From positions 1 through 39,758 of the IMG/VR virus record IMGVR_UViG_3300020723_000011: 39,758 nucleotides of DNA. One strand, written 5' to 3'. Every line of letters begins with the position of its first letter. The first letter of the stretch is position 1. Below the pieces are notes generated by a model. It was given only the letters and a program-made list of their open reading frames with translations. It ran no database searches and was not told the origin of the DNA. Source of the stretch: a virus. Its lineage: Duplodnaviria; Caudoviricetes. Position numbers and translations under genes: made by a program. This document shows positions 5,858 through 29,113 of this stretch, one piece after another.

Positions 5858-7978
5858 ATGGCAAAAAAGCCCAAGACCGAGGCGGACAAACCCAAGGCCG
5901 ACAAGCTGGAAAATTGGGCGAGCAAACCTGACTCCGACATTTATGTGAAGTGTGAGGACATGTACCCCACACTTCTCAAGGGGTACCAAAATCGGGAGGA
6001 GGCAGATGAGGCCATCGAAGAATACTGGAGCATCTTCAACGCCTCGCCTGACGACAACCAAATCTACGTTGGCAACTCCAAGTGCTACCTACCGGTGGTA
6101 CGAGATGCTATTGTGGCTCGTTCAAAACGGGCACTAAAACAGCTATTTCCCTCCAAGTACAAGCACGTCGAAGCCGTTGGAAGTGACGGGCAAAACCCAC
6201 AGCCCCAACTCGCCCTCCTAGAGCACTACATCCGCAAGACCAAACTGCGGTCCATCGTGCGCTCCGTGCTCATGGCCGGTGACGTGACCGGTCAGTGGAA
6301 CGTGTATGTTGACTGGCAAAAGACCTCGCGCAATGTGTCCAACATGGTCAAGCGCAACCCCATCGTCGCAGACGTTGAGGGTGCCGAGCTTGAGATTGAG
6401 GACGTGACCGAGGAAGTCGATGAGATGGAGGACGAGGAGGTCATCGAGGAAGGCCCGGACGTGGTGGACTTTGCCACCGAGGACTTCATTGTGGTGCCGC
6501 CCACCTGCACCAACCTCGACAAAGCCGACATTTCCTGCCTCAAGTTGCGCATGTCCAAAGACCAGATCAAGGGTCTCATTGACGATGGCATCTTTGTGCT
6601 CGATGAGGAGTCCGACATTGGTGCGTGGGTCGCTGACCGCAAGGGCAAGGAAAAAGTCGTGCCCGACAAAAAGCGCACGTCCGACGCTGGCATCAAGACC
6701 GAGGGCACGCTAAAGTACGCCCTCATCTATTGGGCTCAGGCCTACATGAAGCCTGACAAAGACAAGCCCAAGTGCCTGATGGACATTTACTTTGCCGGTG
6801 ACAAAGACATTATCGGCATCGTCAAGGCACCCGCTTGGGGCCAAAAACGCAGTGTCATTTCCGCACCGGTTGACCGCGTGGCCGGGAGCTTCAACGGCAT
6901 CTCCAAGATCGAGGGCGTCAAGCGCCTCCAGTGGAATTTGAACGACTTTTGGAACATGGGGCAAGACTCGGCCATGTACTCCCTGCTACCGGTGGTGATG
7001 ACCGACCCGGAAAAAAACCCCAACTACGCCATGATGGTGTTTGGGCTGGCCGCCGTGTGGCCCGTGGACCCAAAGAGCACGCAATTCCAGAGCTTCCCGG
7101 CCCTGTGGAAAGACGCGGCCGGGATGTGCGAGAACATCAAGCAGCAAATTCACCAGTCGCTCGACGTGAACGAGATGATGATGGGGGCCATGCCCAAAGG
7201 ACGCAAAAACAGCGCCGCGATGGGTGCCCAGCAGCAAGAGCAATCCGTGGCTGTGATCGATCACGCCGAGCGCTTTGAGGACGAGATTCTCAATCCGCTC
7301 ATGGAGCGCTTCTTTGAGTACGACGCGCAGTATCGGGACGAGGAATTGACGGTTGTGTCACAAGGTGACATTGGGATAAAGGCTTCCATGCAGAAGATAC
7401 CACGCCAGCAATGGGGTGAGCGGTATTTCTTCCAATGGACCGGCACGGCATTCACAATGAACCTTAACCGGATGCAACAGCAGATTGCATTCATGAACGT
7501 GTTGCGCGGCATTCCACCCCAGCAACTCAACGGCCGCCGCCTCGACATTACCCCCATTTTGGAGAACATGTGCGAGAACGTGTTTGGTGCCGAGTTGGCA
7601 GGGCGCGTGCTCATTGACGACCGCAACAAGTACAGCGTGCCTCCGCAGATCGAGGACGAGATGTTGCTAAACGGCATCATGGTCGAGGTGCACGAGGGTG
7701 ACGACGACGCGCAGCACATCCAGCAGCACCAGCAGTCCGGCCAGCAGTCCGGTGACCCTACCGGCCTCATCCGCACCCACATCCAGAACCACATGAAGGC
7801 GATGGAAATCAAGCGGCAGAAGGCCATGCCGCCACCTCCCCCGCAAGGCCAACCCGGCGTACCTGGCGGTGCAGGCCCCGGCGTGCCCGGAACACCTCGG
7901 CCCGGTGCGCAGCCAGCGCCCCAGCGCCCGGTCCAGCAACCACCCGGCTCCCAGCCCCAAGCTGGTCCTGTTGGCTAA
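5858..7978 (+). CDS. Portal protein (podovirus type)
   Basis: 706 aa, position after terL, helical composition, Q/P/G-rich C-terminal tail. Confidence 0.85.
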   Translation: MAKKPKTEADKPKADKLENWASKPDSDIYVKCEDMYPTLLKGYQNREEADEAIEEYWSIFNASPDDNQIYVGNSKCYLPVVRDAIVARSKRALKQLFPSKYKHVEAVGSDGQNPQPQLALLEHYIRKTKLRSIVRSVLMAGDVTGQWNVYVDWQKTSRNVSNMVKRNPIVADVEGAELEIEDVTEEVDEMEDEEVIEEGPDVVDFATEDFIVVPPTCTNLDKADISCLKLRMSKDQIKGLIDDGIFVLDEESDIGAWVADRKGKEKVVPDKKRTSDAGIKTEGTLKYALIYWAQAYMKPDKDKPKCLMDIYFAGDKDIIGIVKAPAWGQKRSVISAPVDRVAGSFNGISKIEGVKRLQWNLNDFWNMGQDSAMYSLLPVVMTDPEKNPNYAMMVFGLAAVWPVDPKSTQFQSFPALWKDAAGMCENIKQQIHQSLDVNEMMMGAMPKGRKNSAAMGAQQQEQSVAVIDHAERFEDEILNPLMERFFEYDAQYRDEELTVVSQGDIGIKASMQKIPRQQWGERYFFQWTGTAFTMNLNRMQQQIAFMNVLRGIPPQQLNGRRLDITPILENMCENVFGAELAGRVLIDDRNKYSVPPQIEDEMLLNGIMVEVHEGDDDAQHIQQHQQSGQQSGDPTGLIRTHIQNHMKAMEIKRQKAMPPPPPQGQPGVPGGAGPGVPGTPRPGAQPAPQRPVQQPPGSQPQAGPVG

Positions 7979-8035: not shown

Positions 8036-8833
8036 ATGAACCGTGCTCTCAAAATCCTTTTGTCTTTTATCAGCCCCAAAGCAATCCCATCCTCGGCCCC
8101 TGTGGTCATCGGCGCGATGCAGGACTATGCCAACTTGCAAACCACGCTCAACCAGTTGGCCGCCAATGGCGCGTCCTCGGCTGGCAACGTGCAGTACACC
8201 GCAAGTGCAGCCGCCTCCCTGACGCTGACCGCTTTGGCCGCCGCCTCCATTCTGTTGACCAACGGCGGTGCCGTGACGGTGACTTTGGACTCGGCCTACA
8301 ACATGGGGCTGCGCCTGCCTGCCCCTCTGGCAGTCGGCCAGCAATTCACCTTTGAGGTGACCACGGCTGCCGCCACCACCGTTGCCACGCCCACCCTGAG
8401 CGACACTGCTGTGACACTGGCTGGTACCACCGCCGTGCTGGCCGCCGCCAAGCGCAACTACCTCGGCCAGATCACGCAGGTGTTTTCCACACAAGGTATC
8501 GCCCTGACCGCAGGCTCGACCTTCAGCTCCCTGACGCAGGTGGGTTCGACCAACAACTACACCGTGGCGCTTGGCACCAATGCCATCGTCCCGACCGTAG
8601 GCCAGTTGATCTATTTGGGCGTGTCCGCTGGTACCCTGCCTGCTGGCTGGTACCCCATCAACAAGGTGACCTCGGCTACCTCGTTCGTGATCGCAGCCCC
8701 CGTGTCGGCCGCCGCTTGGACCGCCACTGCCGCCACCCTGAATGCCAGCAACGCGGTTGCACCGGCCACGTACTCGCCCCTGATTACCATCACCGGCATG
8801 TACTCGACCGTCACGGCCATCATGAGCGCATAA
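8036..8833 (+). CDS. Putative head decoration / minor structural protein with hydrophobic N-terminal leader
   Basis: GGAGA SD before ATG 8036 (the track start at 7988 is probably too early); very Ala/Thr-rich; in the head module. Confidence 0.75.
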   Translation: MNRALKILLSFISPKAIPSSAPVVIGAMQDYANLQTTLNQLAANGASSAGNVQYTASAAASLTLTALAAASILLTNGGAVTVTLDSAYNMGLRLPAPLAVGQQFTFEVTTAAATTVATPTLSDTAVTLAGTTAVLAAAKRNYLGQITQVFSTQGIALTAGSTFSSLTQVGSTNNYTVALGTNAIVPTVGQLIYLGVSAGTLPAGWYPINKVTSATSFVIAAPVSAAAWTATAATLNASNAVAPATYSPLITITGMYSTVTAIMSA

Positions 8834-8835
8834 TC

Positions 8836-8982
8836 ATGGCTTTCACGCTGACTCCACCTGCAATACCGACCTACGCGGCGTTTCCGACTGTGCCGACTGA
8901 CCCACCCGGTCAGCCAGTGCAAATCCCGGTAGTGACGGCTATCCCGGTGTATGCGCCAATTGACGCAACGCCTCAAATGTGA
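8836..8982 (+). CDS. Small Pro-rich protein, 48 aa (MAFTLTPPAIPTYAAFPTVPTDPPGQPVQIP...)
   Basis: ATG 2 nt after the previous stop; GTGA overlap with the next gene. Confidence 0.6.
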   Translation: MAFTLTPPAIPTYAAFPTVPTDPPGQPVQIPVVTAIPVYAPIDATPQM

Positions 8983-9389
8983 ATGCGAAAGTAGTCCAAA
9001 CGGGCGAGCCAATCACGGCTCGTTCCGTGTCATGGTTTTGGCACAAGCGCATCTACGTGGGCACCAAGTTCACCGACTTGCCGCCGCGCGTGAAGATGGC
9101 TGTGCTGGCGCATGAATTTGCCCACTGTGAGGGCCACCACACCGAATGGCGTGCGCTCGCGCTGCTGTGCCCATTTCTCATAAAGTGGCTTTGCCATTGG
9201 CAGGAATACCGCGCCGACGCCTACGTCGCCAGGTGTGGCTTTGGGCCTGAGCTTCTTTGGTTTTTGCGCGATGAGAGCAAGGGCTCGACCACGCATCCAC
9301 AAAATTACTTGCGCCGTCAAAAATTGGTGCATAATAAATTTTTCGCACAGCCCCCGTTAAGGGCTAACACTGACGCACTGTTGGCGTAA
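8979..9389 (+). CDS. Minimal M48-like (HtpX/Ste24-type) zinc metallopeptidase
   Basis: AVLAHEFAH (HExxH), then a hydrophobic segment, QEYRAD (third zinc ligand, ExxAD) and THP...R, the M48 signature order. Confidence 0.8.
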   Translation: MNAKVVQTGEPITARSVSWFWHKRIYVGTKFTDLPPRVKMAVLAHEFAHCEGHHTEWRALALLCPFLIKWLCHWQEYRADAYVARCGFGPELLWFLRDESKGSTTHPQNYLRRQKLVHNKFFAQPPLRANTDALLA

Positions 9390-9406
9390 CCAACTAGGAG
9401 ATAGAG

Positions 9407-10186
9407 ATGAAATTGTGGTACTTTTTGCTTTTGTTGAAGGCATATTTTTCCCCTGCGGTCGATGACGACTTTGCTCCGGACGATGATACGCCCCCGCCTG
9501 ACGACGATACCCCGCCTGACGACGATGACGACACGCCCCCTCCGGACGATGACGACGACACACCGCCCCCTGACGACGATGAGCCAGCCCCTGCGCCGCG
9601 TATTAGCCGGGCTCAGAAGGCAATCATTGACGCCCGTACCCGTGCTCAGGCAGCCGAGCGGGAGCTTGCAGAAGCTCGTGCAGAACTAGCCTTATCACGC
9701 CGTGCACCCCAGCAGCCAGCTACACCCTCTGCCGACCAAGTTCTTTGGCAGCAAGAGGAGGAGACTTTGCGCAACCCCGAGGCGACCGACTGGCAGAAAT
9801 ATGCCATTCAAGCCAACCGGGCCGCACGTTCCGCGAACACCAACTCTCAGAACGCCCTCCAGCGTGCCGAGGACTTGGCCGACAAAACATCGTTTGCAGC
9901 CGTGGCTTCCACAAAGCCGAAGCTGTACGCGGCGTACAAGGACCGTGTGGAGGACATGCTCAAGGACATGCGTAGCCGAGGTGCCAATGCGCCACGCGAG
10001 AAATTGCTGGCGATATTGGTGGGTGAGGACATGCTCTCGGGAAAATTGAAGCCTAGCAAGAGCGGAGGTACAAAACCCGCTGCCGCCCCGCGCGCCTCGG
10101 CCCGGTCAGACGTTCCTTCCTCCGGAAGCGGACGCATGAGCGAGCATGAAAAGCGTGCGAAGCGGCTTGAAAATGTTCGCATCTAG
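9407..10186 (+). CDS. Capsid scaffolding protein with hydrophobic N-terminal leader
   Basis: AGGAG SD; acidic Asp/Pro repeats, coiled coil, basic C-terminus; immediately before the major capsid gene. Confidence 0.8.
   Translation: MKLWYFLLLLKAYFSPAVDDDFAPDDDTPPPDDDTPPDDDDDTPPPDDDDDTPPPDDDEPAPAPRISRAQKAIIDARTRAQAAERELAEARAELALSRRAPQQPATPSADQVLWQQEEETLRNPEATDWQKYAIQANRAARSANTNSQNALQRAEDLADKTSFAAVASTKPKLYAAYKDRVEDMLKDMRSRGANAPREKLLAILVGEDMLSGKLKPSKSGGTKPAAAPRASARSDVPSSGSGRMSEHEKRAKRLENVRI
9475..9582 (+). repeat. Degenerate coding tandem repeat (PDDD(DD)TPP)n in the scaffold
   Basis: Repeated ccTGACGACGAT...ACGCCCCC units. Confidence 0.8.
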
Positions 10187-10196
10187 GAGTTACGCC

Positions 10197-11663
10197 ATGA
10201 AAACTGTTTACTTCGCCCTCATGGGCATCCTGTCCGGTATCGCCAGCGCATTTGGCAGCTACCTGTCCCCCGGTCTGACCAACTACAGCCCTGGCTCGTC
10301 TGGTCAAACCATCGCCAACGACATTGAGCTTCACATCCGCGAGGAAGTGTTGCGCATTGCCCAGCGCCAGCTTGTTGCCTACCAATTCGGCCAGCCGCTG
10401 AAACTGGAAAAGCAATCGGGCGTGCAGTACATCGCAACACGTTATGAGCGTTTACCCCTGCCGTTTGCGCCCCTGTCCGAAGGCGTTGCAGCCTCAGGTG
10501 AGTCCATCACGATTGCACAGGTTTCCGCTACTGCCCAGCAGTGGGGGGATTTGGTCCGCGTGACTGACGTTGCCGACATGACCATCAAGCACCCCCTGTT
10601 TAAACAGGCCATCCGCCTGATTGGTATCCAGCAGCCGGAAACCATCGAGCGCAACGTGTTCAACATCTTGTTGACCGGCACGCAGGTGAACTACGCAAAC
10701 AGCAAGGCCAACCGTGCGTCCCTGATTGCAACCGATGTGATGAGCCCCATCGAAATCGGCAAGATCGTCGGCGCGCTGGAAACCTTTGGTGCCCCCACCT
10801 TCAATGGTGACGACGCCATCGCAATGAAGCTCGACGCGGATTCCACAACCCGCTTCACCTCCAGCACCAAGTCCAAGGCCCCCAATGTGATGCCTCACTA
10901 CGTGTCTCTCGTGCACCCTCTGGTTGCGCAAGATTTGCGTCAGAACAGCACCATCGCCACGGCATGGTCCTACAGCGATTTGAACCGCCTGTATAACAAC
11001 GACCTTGGCGAGTGGGGCGGTGCGCGCTTCTGCAAGTCCAACATGATTCCGTACTGGACTGGCGTGGCTCAGATCAACGGTGCAGCCTCCACAACCGGTG
11101 GTGCACTGGCGACTGGTACCTACTACGTGCAGGTGACCGGCGCTCCGGCCGCGACCTCCGTTGAGCAGCGCATCTATCAGGTGTCCGCATCCATCTCTGT
11201 GACAGGCCCCACCGGCTCTATCAGCTTGACGATGCCAACTCTGGCAGGCTACGTGTTCAACGTGTACGTTGGTACCTCGGCTGCCCCGACCAACTTGGGC
11301 CTGTCCGCCTCTGGTCCCGCTACCGGCCCTCTGGCTGGCAACGCGACTCAGTTGGCCTCTGGCGCAACCGTTGTGGTGACCGGTATCGGCGCATCGCAAA
11401 CGCCTCCCGCAGCCCCTGCGACCGGCGTGACCGTGTTCCCCACGTTCTTCTTTGGCACCGACGCCTACGGCCAAGTGGTGCTCGATGACGTGGAGTACAA
11501 CTATCTGAGTCAAGCTGACAAGTCTGACCCCATGAACCAAACTCGTGTGGTTAGCTGGAAGATGATGTACGGTACGATCATTCTGAATAACGCTTACATG
11601 GCTCGTACCGAGTCCGGTAGCGCATTCAGTGCGACCTACACTGCCGGTACCGCCTCAGAATAA
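10197..11663 (+). CDS. Major capsid protein (N4-gp56-like family) with N-terminal leader and inserted beta-rich domain
   Basis: AGGAG SD before ATG 10197; PLSEGV, QQWGDLVRVTD, LVHP..AQDLR, DLGEWGGARF and DKSDPMNQ...WK motifs; followed by a terminator. Confidence 0.88.
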   Translation: MKTVYFALMGILSGIASAFGSYLSPGLTNYSPGSSGQTIANDIELHIREEVLRIAQRQLVAYQFGQPLKLEKQSGVQYIATRYERLPLPFAPLSEGVAASGESITIAQVSATAQQWGDLVRVTDVADMTIKHPLFKQAIRLIGIQQPETIERNVFNILLTGTQVNYANSKANRASLIATDVMSPIEIGKIVGALETFGAPTFNGDDAIAMKLDADSTTRFTSSTKSKAPNVMPHYVSLVHPLVAQDLRQNSTIATAWSYSDLNRLYNNDLGEWGGARFCKSNMIPYWTGVAQINGAASTTGGALATGTYYVQVTGAPAATSVEQRIYQVSASISVTGPTGSISLTMPTLAGYVFNVYVGTSAAPTNLGLSASGPATGPLAGNATQLASGATVVVTGIGASQTPPAAPATGVTVFPTFFFGTDAYGQVVLDDVEYNYLSQADKSDPMNQTRVVSWKMMYGTIILNNAYMARTESGSAFSATYTAGTASE

Positions 11664-11675
11664 TTCGGGGCCTTT

Positions 11676-11706
11676 GGTGGGGGTCTGATGGCTCCCACCC
11701 CTTTTT
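11676..11706 (+). terminator. Rho-independent terminator after the capsid gene
   Basis: Stem GGTGGGGGTC / GGCTCCCACC (two G-U pairs), loop TGAT, then CCTTTTT. Confidence 0.75.
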
Positions 11707-11718
11707 AGGAGAATCAAG

Positions 11719-12075
11719 ATGGACGAACAAGCTCAAACCCCTGCGCCTGAGACTCAGGCACCGGCCGCTCCAGTGGAGCCAACCACACCCGACCCTGCGC
11801 CTGAGACTGAGGCACCGGCCGCTCCAGTGGAGCCAACCACGCCCGACCCTGCGCCTGAGGCACCGGCCGCTCCAGTGGAGCCAACCACGCCCGACCCTGC
11901 GCCTGAGGCACCGGCCGAGAGCTTGCTCGACCAGCTTGAATCCGAGGCTGTGGAAGCCGCTCAGGAAGTCGTTACGGCTGCCGAGAACGTCATCCACGCC
12001 GTTGAGCGTCGGTCTTTTGGCCGACCATCCGCCGACCATCCGGTCACCGTTACCACCGTGTTTGGAGGCCAATAA
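11719..12075 (+). CDS. Acidic Pro/Ala/Glu repeat protein, 118 aa
   Basis: AGGAG SD; TAATG coupling to the next gene. Confidence 0.75.
   Translation: MDEQAQTPAPETQAPAAPVEPTTPDPAPETEAPAAPVEPTTPDPAPEAPAAPVEPTTPDPAPEAPAESLLDQLESEAVEAAQEVVTAAENVIHAVERRSFGRPSADHPVTVTTVFGGQ
11739..11917 (+). repeat. About 3.3 near-perfect tandem copies of a 48-54 bp coding unit (PAPE(TE)APAAPVEPTTPD)
   Basis: Direct repeats of CCCTGCGCCTGAG...GGCACCGGCCGCTCCAGTGGAGCCAACCAC. Confidence 0.95.
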
Positions 12076-18723: not shown

Positions 18724-19280
18724 GAATCGAAACATTTTGCAAGGGCGAAACGCTCATCCTGCGTGGGGATAGCCTCGCCGCTGTGGAGTTCACCAAGGGT
18801 GATTTGCCTACAGGTGACGCTCGCATCGCCGTGTGCGAAAAGGCCGCTCTTGAAGCCGAAAAGTTTGGGCCTGATAGTGTCCGCCACAAGCTCTACAGCC
18901 TTGAATACGCATTGGGTGCTACTCCCGAGGTTGAGTGCCCTTTGCAGCACGTCTTTGCACCCGGTGTGTATGCCCGTACCATAAACATCCCCGCAGGCAC
19001 TTGCATCGTCGGTAAAATTCACAAGCACAAGCACCTTAACATTTTGTCAGCAGGTACGGTGCTGGTGTTGACTGAATCGCAAGGCGTTGAACGTCTTACC
19101 GGCCCTTTGACAATGGTGTCTGAGCCGGGAACAAAACGTGCCGTATTGGCCGAAACGGACGCAGTGTGGACGACCATTCATTTGACCGCCGAGACTGATC
19201 TGGCGAAGATCGAGGACGAGGTAATTGCCAAGTCCTACGAGGAATACGAGCAATTTTTAAAGATTGGGGTGCAACCATGA
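18720..19280 (+). CDS. Cupin-fold protein
   Basis: HVFAPGVYARTINIPAG...VGKIHKHKHLNIL..G and SEPGTKR cupin-like motifs. Confidence 0.75.
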   Translation: MRIETFCKGETLILRGDSLAAVEFTKGDLPTGDARIAVCEKAALEAEKFGPDSVRHKLYSLEYALGATPEVECPLQHVFAPGVYARTINIPAGTCIVGKIHKHKHLNILSAGTVLVLTESQGVERLTGPLTMVSEPGTKRAVLAETDAVWTTIHLTAETDLAKIEDEVIAKSYEEYEQFLKIGVQP

Positions 19281-23841: not shown

Positions 23842-23906
23842 TCTTACTCACCCTCGCCGTGATCGCATGGTTTGCACTTGAGGCGTGGTTCGCGTTTATG
23901 CCATGA
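23838..23906 (+). CDS. 22-aa hydrophobic peptide (MILLTLAVIAWFALEAWFAFMP)
   Basis: ATGA overlap with the upstream stop and with the downstream ATG 23903. Confidence 0.55.
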   Translation: MILLTLAVIAWFALEAWFAFMP

Positions 23907-25249
23907 GCAAGCGCCTCCTCATCATCGACACGTCGAGCAACTGCCTTGACATGGCCCTGCGCGCCAAGATGGCCGGGTGGCAAGTGAAGTGGTACGACCG
24001 GCCCCGGCCAGATGGCGGACCCCGGCTCGCCGGTATGGGCATGATCGACAAGATTACCGACTTTGGCGAGATACAGCGCAAGTGGCTCGATTGGGCCGAC
24101 CTCATCTATCTGCCGGACAACACCCGGTGGCTCGATATGCTGGAGCCGTACCGCAAGCAAGGCTACCCCATCCTCGCGCCAGGTGTGGAAGCCGCCAAGC
24201 TGGAAACCGACCGAGATGCAGGCCAGAAGGCCATGAAGCAAAGCGGCATCAAAATTATGGAGTCCAAGGCGTTTAACGATTACGATGCAGCCATTGCATT
24301 TGTCAAAAAGAACCCGGAGTTTTTAGTCAGCAAGCCGTCAGGTGACGCCAACAAAGCACTGAGCTATGTTGCGAGCGACCCTGCTGATCTGGTCTACATG
24401 CTCGGGCGCTGGAAGCAGCGGGAGGATTTACGCAAAGCGGCAAAAAAGGACGGTTTCATTCTGCAAGAGCGCAAGTACGGCGTCGAGATGGCCGTTGGCG
24501 GCTGGTACGGCCCCGGTGGCTGGAGCAAGTGGTTTTACGAAAATTGGGAGTACAAAAAGCTCATGGATGGTGACCTCGGGGTTGCCACTGGTGAGATGGG
24601 TACGCTCTCGCGCATGACCACCAAGTCGCGGCTGGCCGAGGAAGTGCTCAAGCCTGTTGGCCCCATCCTCGACAAGCTCGGCTACGTGGGCTACATCGAC
24701 AACAACTGCATCATCGACGCCCAAGGCCCGTGGCCGATGGAATGGACCATGCGCGACGGCTGGCCCACCAAGCACAACGTCACGGCCCACATCAAAAATG
24801 ACGACCCCATCCAATGGATGCTCGATGGGCTCAACGGCAAAGATACCATCGAGGCTGTGGAGGGCGAGGTGGGTATCAGCATCGTCGTGGCCCTGCCGGA
24901 CTTCCCGTACTCCAAGATCACCAACAAAGACCTGTGCGGCATCCCCGTGCGCGGTGCTGACGACATGGACCACATCCACCTGTCCGAGGTGATGATTGGC
25001 GAGGCCCCAACGATGGTGGGCGACAAGGTGATGGACACGCCGGGGTACGTCACCTGTGGCGATTACACGCTGGTGGTCACAGGGACCGGCAAGACGATCA
25101 CAGCGGCACGGCGCTCGGCATATGGCGCTGTGGACAAGGTGAAAATTCCCAACAATCCGATGTGGCGGCTCGACATTGGCGCGGGGCGCATGAAGCGTCA
25201 CCTGCCCAAGCTCCACGCGATGGGCTACGCCAAGGGCTTGGAGTATTGA
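23903..25249 (+). CDS. PurD-like (phosphoribosylamine-glycine ligase-like) ATP-grasp enzyme
   Basis: AAKLETDR, VSKPSG, LQERKYGVEM, EYKKLMDGDLGVATGEMG (cf. PurD DHKR..DGD.GPNTGGMG), MEWTMRDGWP (cf. EFNxRFGDP). Confidence 0.85.
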   Translation: MSKRLLIIDTSSNCLDMALRAKMAGWQVKWYDRPRPDGGPRLAGMGMIDKITDFGEIQRKWLDWADLIYLPDNTRWLDMLEPYRKQGYPILAPGVEAAKLETDRDAGQKAMKQSGIKIMESKAFNDYDAAIAFVKKNPEFLVSKPSGDANKALSYVASDPADLVYMLGRWKQREDLRKAAKKDGFILQERKYGVEMAVGGWYGPGGWSKWFYENWEYKKLMDGDLGVATGEMGTLSRMTTKSRLAEEVLKPVGPILDKLGYVGYIDNNCIIDAQGPWPMEWTMRDGWPTKHNVTAHIKNDDPIQWMLDGLNGKDTIEAVEGEVGISIVVALPDFPYSKITNKDLCGIPVRGADDMDHIHLSEVMIGEAPTMVGDKVMDTPGYVTCGDYTLVVTGTGKTITAARRSAYGAVDKVKIPNNPMWRLDIGAGRMKRHLPKLHAMGYAKGLEY

Positions 25250-26695: not shown

Positions 26696-28484
26696 CCACG
26701 TCCCCCAAGATGCTCACGGCCTCGTTGATGTACCACTGATAGTCAATGTCGGCGGGGATGCCATCGGGCAATTCCATCAACGGCCGCGCGCCTTCCGATC
26801 GGGCGACTTTATTGCCGTTAGTCTTGTAAGCGATGTGGCGAGTCTCACCTGCGGCGTAATACCAGCGCACAGCTTTCCCCAAGTACGACTCACCATAAAT
26901 AGCCCCGTCGTTTACTTGGCGAATCGTGAGGAATTGGCGTATGTCGGTGCACCCATAGATGGTATTTTGTATCGGCACACCCAGCGACAAATAATCCAGC
27001 ACCGCTTTGACGCAAATGGCGTTGGTGACGTTTTTCGACAACCCGACCGGCGCGTATAGCCCCTTGAGTTTTTGCTCGCCGTCAGGCTTGAGCGCGATGT
27101 AGTTGTTAACGTCTTTGCTGTAGAGATGAGCATATTCCGTTTCCTCAGTGTTGAAACCTGTGGTCATCTCCCATGCCGCAACCAGCGCCTCAAACAGGTC
27201 GCGTCGGTCATCGGGCACCAGCGTGACCACGCCGTCCGTGTTGGCGCTAACCACCTCAAACCCGTTCACGTCAAAGCTCTCGATGAGCATGAGCAATGCA
27301 ATCTGACCGGTGAGTGTCACGGCAATCATTTGGTCAGGCGCGTACATCATCGAGTACATGCTGCCGAGCTTGCCGAAAGTCCCATTCAAAACAATCTTCA
27401 AAGCCTCGTTGATGACCTTGTTGCCCTCGCGCTTGGCGGCCACACGGCGCTCCAGCAGCGAGCGATAGACCGCCTGAAACGAGTTGCCGTAGCTGGGTGG
27501 GCAGATACCGGCGTTGATGATGAGGGAGGGGTAGTAGCTGGTCACGTCACGGTCCACGATGCGCAGGCCGGGGCGTGCGTGGTGCACGGTGCATTTCTCA
27601 TTGCTGTGGAGGCCGCCGATACCCATCTTGTAGACGCCGCGCCCAATGCGGATGCGCAACGAGTCGAGCGCCGGGGGCATCTCCACGCTGCCCACCGCAT
27701 TGTCTTTGGTGGCGAAGCGGCGCAACTTGAATGTCTGCTGGCCGATGATGGCGAGCATTTGCTGCATCCCCGGCGTCTGGAATGAGGCCCATGCTGGCGC
27801 GTGATAAGTGAACTCATAGGTTAAGTCCACATCCTGCCGGTAGACCCGTTGCGCGAGCCTACGCTCCACCTCGGAGCGGATGACTGCCTCGGCAATCTGC
27901 GCATCGGACTTGGAGCGTAGGTCGATGCCAAACTCTTTGCCCATCTCCTCGCGCAAATCAATCTGAGGCTTCAATCGTTTGTAGAGGTCGATGGTGGTAA
28001 CAAGATCGTTTCCACAGTAAAGCCGCAGGACTGGCACGTCAGCTTGTGATATGACGGCGCTAGGTTCGATTGGTAAATCTTGTAGGCGTCGTGAGTGCAG
28101 ACGACCTCCATAGATTTTAAGTCCCGCAGTGCCGGGAGCAACTTCAATAAGGTCGATATGGTCGAGCGCAAGACGTTCAAATCCGAACTCTCTTTCCATA
28201 TCCCAAAGCTTGAGGTTGCGCAGGATGATGGTATCGCTGGCGAGTTTGAGGGTAGCATTTGTTGCTCCTTTGATGGCGATAGCGAGCATCACCATGTCGT
28301 AGTTGTTGCCGTTGAAAGTGATGTGCGTACCTGGCGGCAACGGGTTGCTCTCAGTCACCACATCGTTGAATAGTTCGTACACCACAATAATCTCGCCCGA
28401 GTACACGTTGCGCACCAGCACGAGAAAATAGTTGACGTAGCACTCAATGTCGAGCACCCAAATTGGTGGTGGTGGGACGATCAT
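26688..28484 (-). CDS. Family B DNA polymerase with 3'-5' exonuclease
   Basis: ExoI DIECY, ExoII FNGNNYD, ExoIII YCGND; [24 protein letters not shown]. Start probably ATG 28484 (ATGA overlap). Confidence 0.92.
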
Positions 28485-29113
28485 TCTGCTGGCGTCCAAA
28501 GCGAGATATGCGCCTCAAACATAAGAACCGCCATCGCGTACTCTTTGCCGTGGTCCGAGTCACCGTGGGTACGCTCGCACGCCACGACAAACTCGTCAAG
28601 CGTGCCAGTGAAGCAACCGGCTTTTACCATCGGCCCTTTATCGGTCAACCACAGGGTTACGTTTGCGCAACGAGAACCTATTGGACCAATCGCAAAATAT
28701 GGGCGCTTGCCGATGAGCACTTTATCAGAATCGAACTTCGCACGGGACAGGTTCGCACTGGACAGGTTCGCACTGGACAGGTTCGCACTGGACAGGTTCG
28801 CACCGTACAGGTCCGCACCGTACAGGTCCGCACCGGACAGGTTCGCACCGTACAGGTTCGCACCGTACAGGTTCGCACCGGACAGGTCCGCACCGGACAG
28901 GTCCGCACCGGACAGGTTCGCACGGGACAGGTCCGCACTGGACAGGTTCGCACCGTACAGGTTCGCACCGGACAGGTCCGCACCGGACAGGTCCGCACTG
29001 GACAGGTTCGCACGGGAAGCGGTGGCCTTTTCCAGAGTTTGCCGTGTGGTCAACCCCGATTCACCTTCATAAATTACGGCATTGGTGAAGCGATTTTTGA
29101 ATACGTGTGTCAT
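28481..29113 (-). CDS. Pentapeptide repeat protein
   Basis: About 18 A[DN]L[SY][GSR] repeats with non-repeat N- and C-caps; AAGGA SD. Confidence 0.95.
28737..29016. repeat. 15-bp coding tandem repeat (CGCAC[CTG]G[GT]ACAGGT[TC])n
   Basis: Read directly; encodes the pentapeptide array. Confidence 0.95.

Follow-up and report, generated by a model that had tools for sequence, protein, structure and literature searches.

The stretch analyzed here, called the window, is the 39,758-base virus record IMGVR_UViG_3300020723_000011. In its head gene module, three proteins with similar short N-terminal leaders (a capsid-spike-like protein, the scaffold and the major capsid protein) flank the gene of a small M48-like peptidase, the most likely cutter of these leaders. 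The proteins and their leaders are as follows, with predicted cut sites marked by arrows.

8036 to 8833, plus strand: capsid-spike-like beta protein of 265 amino acids (aa), an auxiliary head protein by inferred role (AlphaFold2 (AF2) model with a mean predicted local distance difference test score (pLDDT) of 79.6; best structural match the Pa223 capsid spike)
8036 to 8080, plus strand: putative leader of the spike-like protein, 15 aa, box FISPK at 8066 to 8080, predicted cut K15↓A16 (from the sequence and from homologues, 21 of 24 leadered and 3 starting at the site)
8979 to 9389, plus strand: 136-aa minimal M48-like gluzincin peptidase (HExxH at 9111 to 9125, E76 at 9204 to 9206, H106-P107 at 9294 to 9299, R112 at 9312 to 9314)
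9407 to 10186, plus strand: scaffold protein, an acidic repeat followed by a helical part (assigned by position and conservation; a homologue lies directly 5' of the capsid gene in relatives)
9407 to 9457, plus strand: putative scaffold leader, 17 aa, box YFSPA at 9443 to 9457, predicted cut A17↓V18 (12.7 bits on a capsid-trained matrix; leaderless relatives begin at the acidic tract)
10197 to 11663, plus strand: major capsid protein of the N4-gp56 family (TIGR04387, 137.4 bits with a cut-off of 60; PHROG 1357, E 1.2e-34)
10197 to 10274, plus strand: putative capsid leader, 26 aa, box YLSPG at 10260 to 10274, predicted cut G26↓L27 (N29 invariant in leadered and leaderless capsids; peptidase-less relatives begin M-A/P-x-N)

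Leaders of the Three Head Proteins

The N-termini given for the three proteins in a preliminary description of this DNA were confirmed. The starts at 8036, 9407 and 10197 are all preceded by a Shine-Dalgarno (SD)-like sequence, with anti-SD duplex energies of -6.6, -7.3 and -6.8 kcal/mol, respectively. The same description had read a box [SA]-[FY]-[ILF]-S-P at the end of each leader and in no other late protein. The box is present in all three window proteins, but S-P proved to be a variant of this phage, and the family box across relatives is [FYL]-[LFI]-x-[PLR]-[GA]↓[VLI]. Uniqueness was borne out for the capsid and scaffold. On a matrix trained on the capsid boxes of relatives only, with the window and its nearest cluster excluded, these two scored 13.2 and 12.7 bits, and the other 41 of 43 window genes reached at most 5.1 bits. 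It did not hold for the spike-like protein, whose box FISPK↓A scored only 2.7 bits and ranked 10th of 43. The spike-like leader is supported instead by the homologues, which were read by eye; 21 of 24 carry a leader ending in the box, and the other three begin at the inferred site.

In the AF2 model of the spike-like protein, a helix at residues 2 to 12 is followed by a low-confidence loop at residues 13 to 20 that spans the predicted cut site. The best structural match was the capsid spike of Pseudomonas phage Pa223 (Z 10.0, root mean square deviation (rmsd) 2.5, 95 residues aligned). The auxiliary head role first assigned to this "decoration-like" protein is kept as inferred, and capsid-spike-like is the better label. 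A viral structure library gave only partial, fibre-like matches (query TM score (TMq) at most 0.35), the Atlas gave unnamed clusters, and the window copy had no PHROG match.

The leaderless capsids of relatives start M-A/P-x-N, in register with the G↓[VLI]-T-N of leadered capsids. Removal of the initiator methionine is established. A cut one residue after the proline would thus give leadered capsids an N-terminus that coincides with the leaderless one after methionine removal. We infer the cut sites S-P-G↓L, S-P-A↓V and S-P-K↓A for the three window proteins, each one residue past the proline and before a usually hydrophobic residue. The residue after the cut (P1') is V, L or I in capsids and mostly V, L or I in scaffolds; ZMPSTE24 and thermolysin favour a hydrophobic P1' (PMC7948416). 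Translation from a start 3' of the leader was rejected, since only 8 of 31 capsids have GTG or TTG at P1', and an SD-backed start close to the site exists in just 1 of 31 capsids and none of 31 scaffolds.

Pooled pairwise ratios of nonsynonymous to synonymous differences (pN/pS; the pairs are not independent) were 0.27 for P5-P1, 1.19 for P7-P6, 0.04 for P1'-P3' and 0.03 for the core. These values indicate purifying selection on the final five residues of the leader. The serine of the box is encoded by AGC, TCC and TCC in the three window genes, and the box is conserved as protein, not as DNA. Since the residues are kept across different codons, an operator shared at the DNA or RNA level was rejected. 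A scan for promoters and terminators remained at chance level.

The M48-like Peptidase

Between the portal and scaffold genes, the window encodes what is predicted to be an intact minimal zinc peptidase of the M48 type (Ste24-like). The GTG start of its open reading frame (ORF) and the stop of a 48-aa ORF (8836 to 8982) overlap. The motifs reported earlier for the 136-aa protein are present, with HEFAH at residues 45 to 49, ExxAD at 76 to 80 and THP at 105 to 107. H45, E46, H49, H54, E76, D80, G87, L92, P107 and R112 are invariant in all 38 peptidase sequences compared; residue 106 is mostly H or Y and aligns to the HPP...ER segment of ZMPSTE24. The family profile matches Ste24p at E 1.3e-9. 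Against Pfam PF01435, the window protein scored 17.2 bits, under the cut-off of 20.3. M48 matches at E ≤ 0.1 were obtained for 30 of the 38 members (best 2.7e-11), and weak Pfam M78/IrrE matches for six. The predicted structure is compact (pLDDT 90.8) and was aligned with ZMPSTE24 at Z 9.6 (rmsd 2.5, 110 residues) and with Ste24p at Z 7.6. The original M48-type assignment thus stands, with HExxH, ExxAD and H-P...R in order and the ZMPSTE24 fold closest. Foldseek returned no Protein Data Bank (PDB) match at E ≤ 0.001 (matches at E 0.02 to 0.07 only) and two matches in a viral library, both giant-virus proteins. The hydrophobic segment first ascribed to the enzyme corresponds to a patch at residues 59 to 69 (11-residue hydropathy, KD11, 2.1), but no hydrophobic span of transmembrane length is present (maximum 19-residue hydropathy, KD19, 0.85).

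All 80 viral loci fetched with the peptidase profile carry the gene in this head module, 72 with the portal upstream, 70 with the scaffold or capsid downstream and all 80 with at least one of these. At E ≤ 1e-10, the family numbers 326 proteins among representatives at 50% identity, a count that may include cellular M48 enzymes. A comparable mini-M48, with a hydrophobic segment at its N-terminus, lies outside a head module at L309:5716-6300, in a locus with no portal, scaffold or capsid match.

Linkage of Leaders and Peptidase

Linkage was assessed in 303 sequences (the window and fetched loci), 266 of them with a usable capsid start. Excluded were truncated sequences, those with no capsid gene and 12 in which the anchor pattern failed (1 leadered with peptidase, 11 leaderless). 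The capsids formed 88 clusters at 90% identity. Of these, 34 carry a peptidase, 34 span portal to capsid and have none, and 20 could not be assigned. A capsid leader of 8 to 30 aa was found in 34/34 peptidase-bearing clusters compared with 1/34 peptidase-less clusters; 33 of the latter have an extension of 0 to 3 aa and start where the leader would end. Scaffold leaders, scored by eye, were present in all 34 peptidase-bearing clusters. Counted by locus, with redundancy, leaders accompanied the peptidase in 192/192 cases and occurred in 2/53 loci without it.

A whole-record search found no peptidase in any of the seven leaderless records that are at least 98% complete. Two leadered records lacked a peptidase in the fetched locus, and in both it was found elsewhere in the record. 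No complete leadered record without the peptidase was found in this podovirus family. L187, a leadered fragment that is 11% complete and whose scaffold has no leader, is uninformative on linkage. The conservation of the box on all three proteins and its co-occurrence with the peptidase, as proposed at the outset, were thus seen across relatives, and the outcomes named there as refuting (a box not conserved, a missing link to the peptidase, starts 3' of the leaders) did not occur. On the capsid tree, the peptidase clade needs one change (FastTree support 99; IQ-TREE support 96 on 34 rows).

Several other leaders were observed among these relatives. At L132:5120, the capsid leader is longer by about 32 residues and keeps a Y-L-F-P-G↓V box. 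L293, L294, L295, L257, L274, L262 and L070 have leaderless capsids and a distinct short scaffold leader, mostly ending F/Y/M-A-P before the acidic tract. The mini-M48 is absent from the complete records L257 and L294, so any cutter of these scaffold leaders would be a host enzyme.

For co-variation, scaffold boxes were placed by an acidic-tract rule, which replaced a matrix placement that had misplaced variant boxes. The rule found no box in 3/34 clusters and misplaced a few (e.g. L042, L033 and L177). Capsid and scaffold share the P2 residue in 22 of 31 clusters, compared with 12.4 ± 1.8 after shuffling, and the P3 residue in 12 of 31, compared with 4.1. Presence or absence of proline at P2 agreed in 31/37 after two miscalled rows were dropped. 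The boxes of capsid and scaffold thus appear to change together.

The Box on Further Virion Genes

In the complete genome G005 (L223, L301, L304-L306), a box of its own, F/W/Y-L-x-L-[GPA], is found on eight late-strand genes; one match on the opposite strand was taken as chance. The tagged genes include a collagen-repeat protein and a homologue (E 6e-21) of the ejection-like protein at 19277 of the window, which itself starts without a leader. A downstream tail-like gene is tagged as well in L188 (14815). In other genomes, the box is seldom seen beyond the head module; it was found on 13/124 genes between portal and scaffold, 3/162 downstream and 0/60 upstream, and in peptidase-less loci on 5/364 such genes. 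Variants that differ by genome and mark up to eight unrelated genes are more readily explained by a reader encoded in the phage than by a conserved enzyme of the host.

A Related Peptidase in an Unrelated Siphovirus Group

A metagenome scan yielded cellular Ste24-like genes and a siphovirus-type module (PHROG 145 portal, PHROG 283 capsid). The mini-M48 of this module is related to the window family (hhalign probability 98%, E 1e-13), has an N-terminal hydrophobic segment that makes it look membrane-anchored and lies just 5' of the scaffold gene. Among 80 loci of the group, a long capsid leader ending L-G was present in 12/12 peptidase-bearing ones (11 by rule, L323 by eye), and the scaffolds have no leader. 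These sequences support repeated use of a mini-M48 in the same slot. The capsid leaders of the group (L307:5863-8653, L318-L397) are long, optional and scattered over the tree. A PF01435 search of five further records, which is insensitive to mini-M48, gave no match. Two capsid extensions in the podovirus set, at L058:5887 and L290:6884, lie in records that are 57% and 29% complete; that of L058 resembles the end of siphovirus-type leaders.

Genome Context

Profile searches matched a terminase, a portal, the N4-gp56-family capsid and a tail spike in the window, and no tape-measure protein was matched. This set points to a podovirus. One relative has a named host, Paraburkholderia phenoliruptrix LMG 22037, in which it is a prophage (L079; capsid identity 61%). 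It carries both peptidase and leaders, and its processed proteins are predicted to start after L-F-P-G↓V, L-L-P-G↓V and L-F-P-A↓I. Two further features complete the head module.

5858 to 7978, plus strand: portal protein without a leader, the upstream border of the module (PHROG 332, E 1.8e-10; PHROG 1216 portal, E 1.7e-4; box score -7.3 bits)
8836 to 8982, plus strand: Pro-rich ORF of 48 aa, its stop overlapping the start of the peptidase gene (from the sequence; L011 has a small Pro-rich ORF in the equivalent place)

The overlap of the 48-aa ORF with the peptidase start may reflect translational coupling. The scaffold had no Pfam, PHROG or NCBIfam match, and no solved capsid structure matched the window capsid profile. 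No head-module gene matched a serine prohead protease in Pfam, PHROG or NCBIfam, and HExxH is the sole protease motif.

Outside the module, a terminator-like hairpin at 11676-11699 lies just 3' of the capsid gene, and directly after that gene a Pro/Ala/Glu tandem-repeat protein is encoded (11719-12075, plus strand), whose repeat region varies between near-identical relatives. An ATP-grasp, PurD-like protein (23885-25249, plus strand; TIGR00877 E 2e-25, far under the cut-off, and Pfam GARS_A) ends the late operon after the ejection-like genes. A pentapeptide-repeat protein lies in the early region (28481-29113, minus strand; PF00805 E 3.6e-45).

Discussion

The most likely cutter of the leaders is the phage's own minimal M48 enzyme, which would recognize and remove the shared leaders of capsid, scaffold and spike-like protein during head assembly; we give this reading a probability of roughly 0.68. 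The peptidase would read P5-P2 ([FYL]-[LFI]-x-[PLR]) and cut at G26↓L27, A17↓V18 and K15↓A16, before the usually hydrophobic P1' that gluzincins prefer. The N-terminus left by such a cut would match the one that leaderless relatives produce without any processing of a leader. Until it is cut, the leader may, on weaker grounds, act as a shared assembly address that gathers unrelated precursors. A predicted complex of peptidase, zinc and capsid residues 8 to 44, a model suggested in the preliminary description, lends weak support with a score of 0.50 compared with 0.02 for the best control. The runs agreed in at least 80% of contacts, and the partner pLDDT was at least 53. This mark was reached by 116/157 solved and 2/215 mismatched pairs, with 18 of those 157 and both mismatches at 0.60 or below.

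Several observations weigh against this reading. The 34/34 co-occurrence amounts to one evolutionary event, because the peptidase marks a single clade. P1 does not co-vary between capsid and scaffold (12/31 compared with 10.1, p 0.22), 6/37 disagree on proline at P2, and only three independent pairs of box changes fall on well-supported branches, none of them opposite, so that significance is unreachable. Two peptidase-less loci, L058 and L290, have capsid extensions of another type, and several peptidase-less scaffolds carry a short leader ending A-P or S-P. In the siphovirus group, 5/5 leadered records at least 93% complete have no peptidase, and a small residue (A, G, S or P) follows the inferred site. 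Leaders can thus be maintained in this group with no cutter encoded by the phage. In staphylococcal phage 80alpha, the scaffold leader is needed and its cleavage is dispensable (PMC5744158). No cultured relative was found; GenBank phage capsid matches were all below 30% identity, and two peptidases had no match at all.

A wider reading, which we regard as distinctly less probable than simple leader removal, takes the leader as a phage-private address code. One mini-M48 would read a box, particular to each genome, on as many as eight unrelated proteins of the virion (shell, scaffold, spikes, fibre and ejection protein), gather them at the membrane surface and license assembly by cutting. Stripped-down Ste24-like enzymes recruited in at least two unrelated phage lineages would then form a new metalloprotease class of head maturation.

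Among the alternatives, the one that survives best is that the leader serves as a tag for assembly or folding and is either kept or cut by a host enzyme (HtpX-like or other), the phage peptidase having another late target such as scaffold clearance or a host protein. The leadered capsids without a phage peptidase in the siphovirus group, L058 and L290 would fit such a tag, as would 80alpha, in which a host enzyme does the cutting and mutants that cannot be cleaved are viable (PMC5744158). We nevertheless consider it unlikely, since this podovirus family holds no complete leadered record without the peptidase and since genome-specific boxes on up to eight unrelated genes favour a phage-encoded reader.

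Slightly less likely still is tethering of head precursors to the inner membrane through their leaders, with head assembly at that site and release by the peptidase. This reading shares the cleavage step with leader removal as proposed here and differs in purpose. The leaders are hydrophobic and basic (median net charge +2), and the capsid leader of the window has 24 uncharged residues. The hydrophobic patch of the peptidase, the membrane enzymes that are its closest solved relatives, and the siphovirus version with its N-terminal hydrophobic segment and much longer leaders point the same way. However, the median leader has 16 aa and the shortest 8, and a 19-residue hydrophobic span (KD19 ≥ 1.6) was found in only 2/31 capsid and 1/31 scaffold leaders, i.e. 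3/62, and not in the peptidase. An uncharged run of at least 15 residues occurs in 10/31 capsid and 0/31 scaffold leaders, and the window capsid leader alone has a long one. Most leaders thus lack the membrane-spanning hydrophobic core of a Sec signal peptide or signal anchor. The tethering proposed in the preliminary description is thus not general, because the majority of leaders have too few residues to cross a membrane; peripheral contact, a possible role for the leaders, is its sole remaining form. That the peptidase is unrelated cargo, such as an anti-repressor or anti-defence protease that merely arose with the leader in the same ancestor, would suit the single origin on the tree and the weak M78/IrrE matches in 6/38 members but is highly improbable with 80/80 loci in the head module, M48 matches in 30/38 members and a related enzyme in the same slot of an unrelated phage group.

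The nearest known counterpart is 80alpha, in which capsid and scaffold each lose 13-14 residues to Prp, a cysteine protease of the host (PMC5744158, PMC9405229). Prp (MEROPS C108) has ribosomal protein L27 as cellular substrate and cuts F↓A in the motif LQFF↓A (PMC9405229, Table 1). Even for 80alpha, the purpose of leaders shared by capsid and scaffold is not settled (PMC5744158). Both systems have a short shared N-terminal leader with a common motif on capsid and scaffold, removed in 80alpha and predicted to be removed in the window. In other phages, the Prp motif likewise occurs on further virion proteins that share no homology. In contrast to Prp, the candidate cutter here is a phage-encoded zinc metallopeptidase, and the motif is unrelated to LQFF↓A and varies by genome. 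Moreover, 80alpha is a Staphylococcus phage, whereas the host-named relative here is a Paraburkholderia prophage. By analogy, the window system would work like Prp-type leader processing, but it is not a member of that type.

Compared with family M48 (Ste24p/ZMPSTE24, HtpX, BepA; PF01435), the phage enzyme has HExxH, ExxAD and H/Y-P...R in the same order and finds its best sequence and fold matches there, but it is a standalone protein of about 110-140 aa without transmembrane helices and with 26 residues from HExxH to the third ligand. The minigluzincins proabylysin (4JIU) and selecase (4QHF) share the minimal M48/M56 scaffold and the similar size (Z 6.4 and 5.2), yet they are archaeal and match less well than Ste24; the portion of the preprint available mentions no phage role for them (bioRxiv 2020.07.07.192476). 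Two other phage metalloproteases considered, a crAss-like zincin (bioRxiv 2020.03.07.982082) and the SprT protease of Arthrobacter AZ phages (bioRxiv 2025.05.26.655371), are assigned other roles and were rejected. A literature search, which missed most subscription papers, found neither an M48-type head protease nor this leader.

The prohead proteases T4 gp21 and HK97 gp4 are phage-encoded serine proteases of another fold, with the gene between portal and capsid, and T4 gp21 has several substrates among head and cargo proteins, which it cuts at a single motif. The window enzyme resembles them in being encoded by the phage between these two genes but differs from their serine type, and no gene in the window matches their families.

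The family offers natural versions with and without the peptidase, genome-specific boxes and a named Paraburkholderia prophage, which makes the question directly testable. The M48 core of roughly 120 residues with its predicted short substrate motif may serve as a tractable model for ZMPSTE24-type catalysis. To our knowledge, the head-maturation proteases described so far are serine enzymes, apart from the cysteine protease Prp. If leader removal by the phage peptidase is correct, head maturation would gain a further catalytic class, that of the metalloproteases, in the form of a minimal Ste24-like zinc enzyme encoded by the phage.

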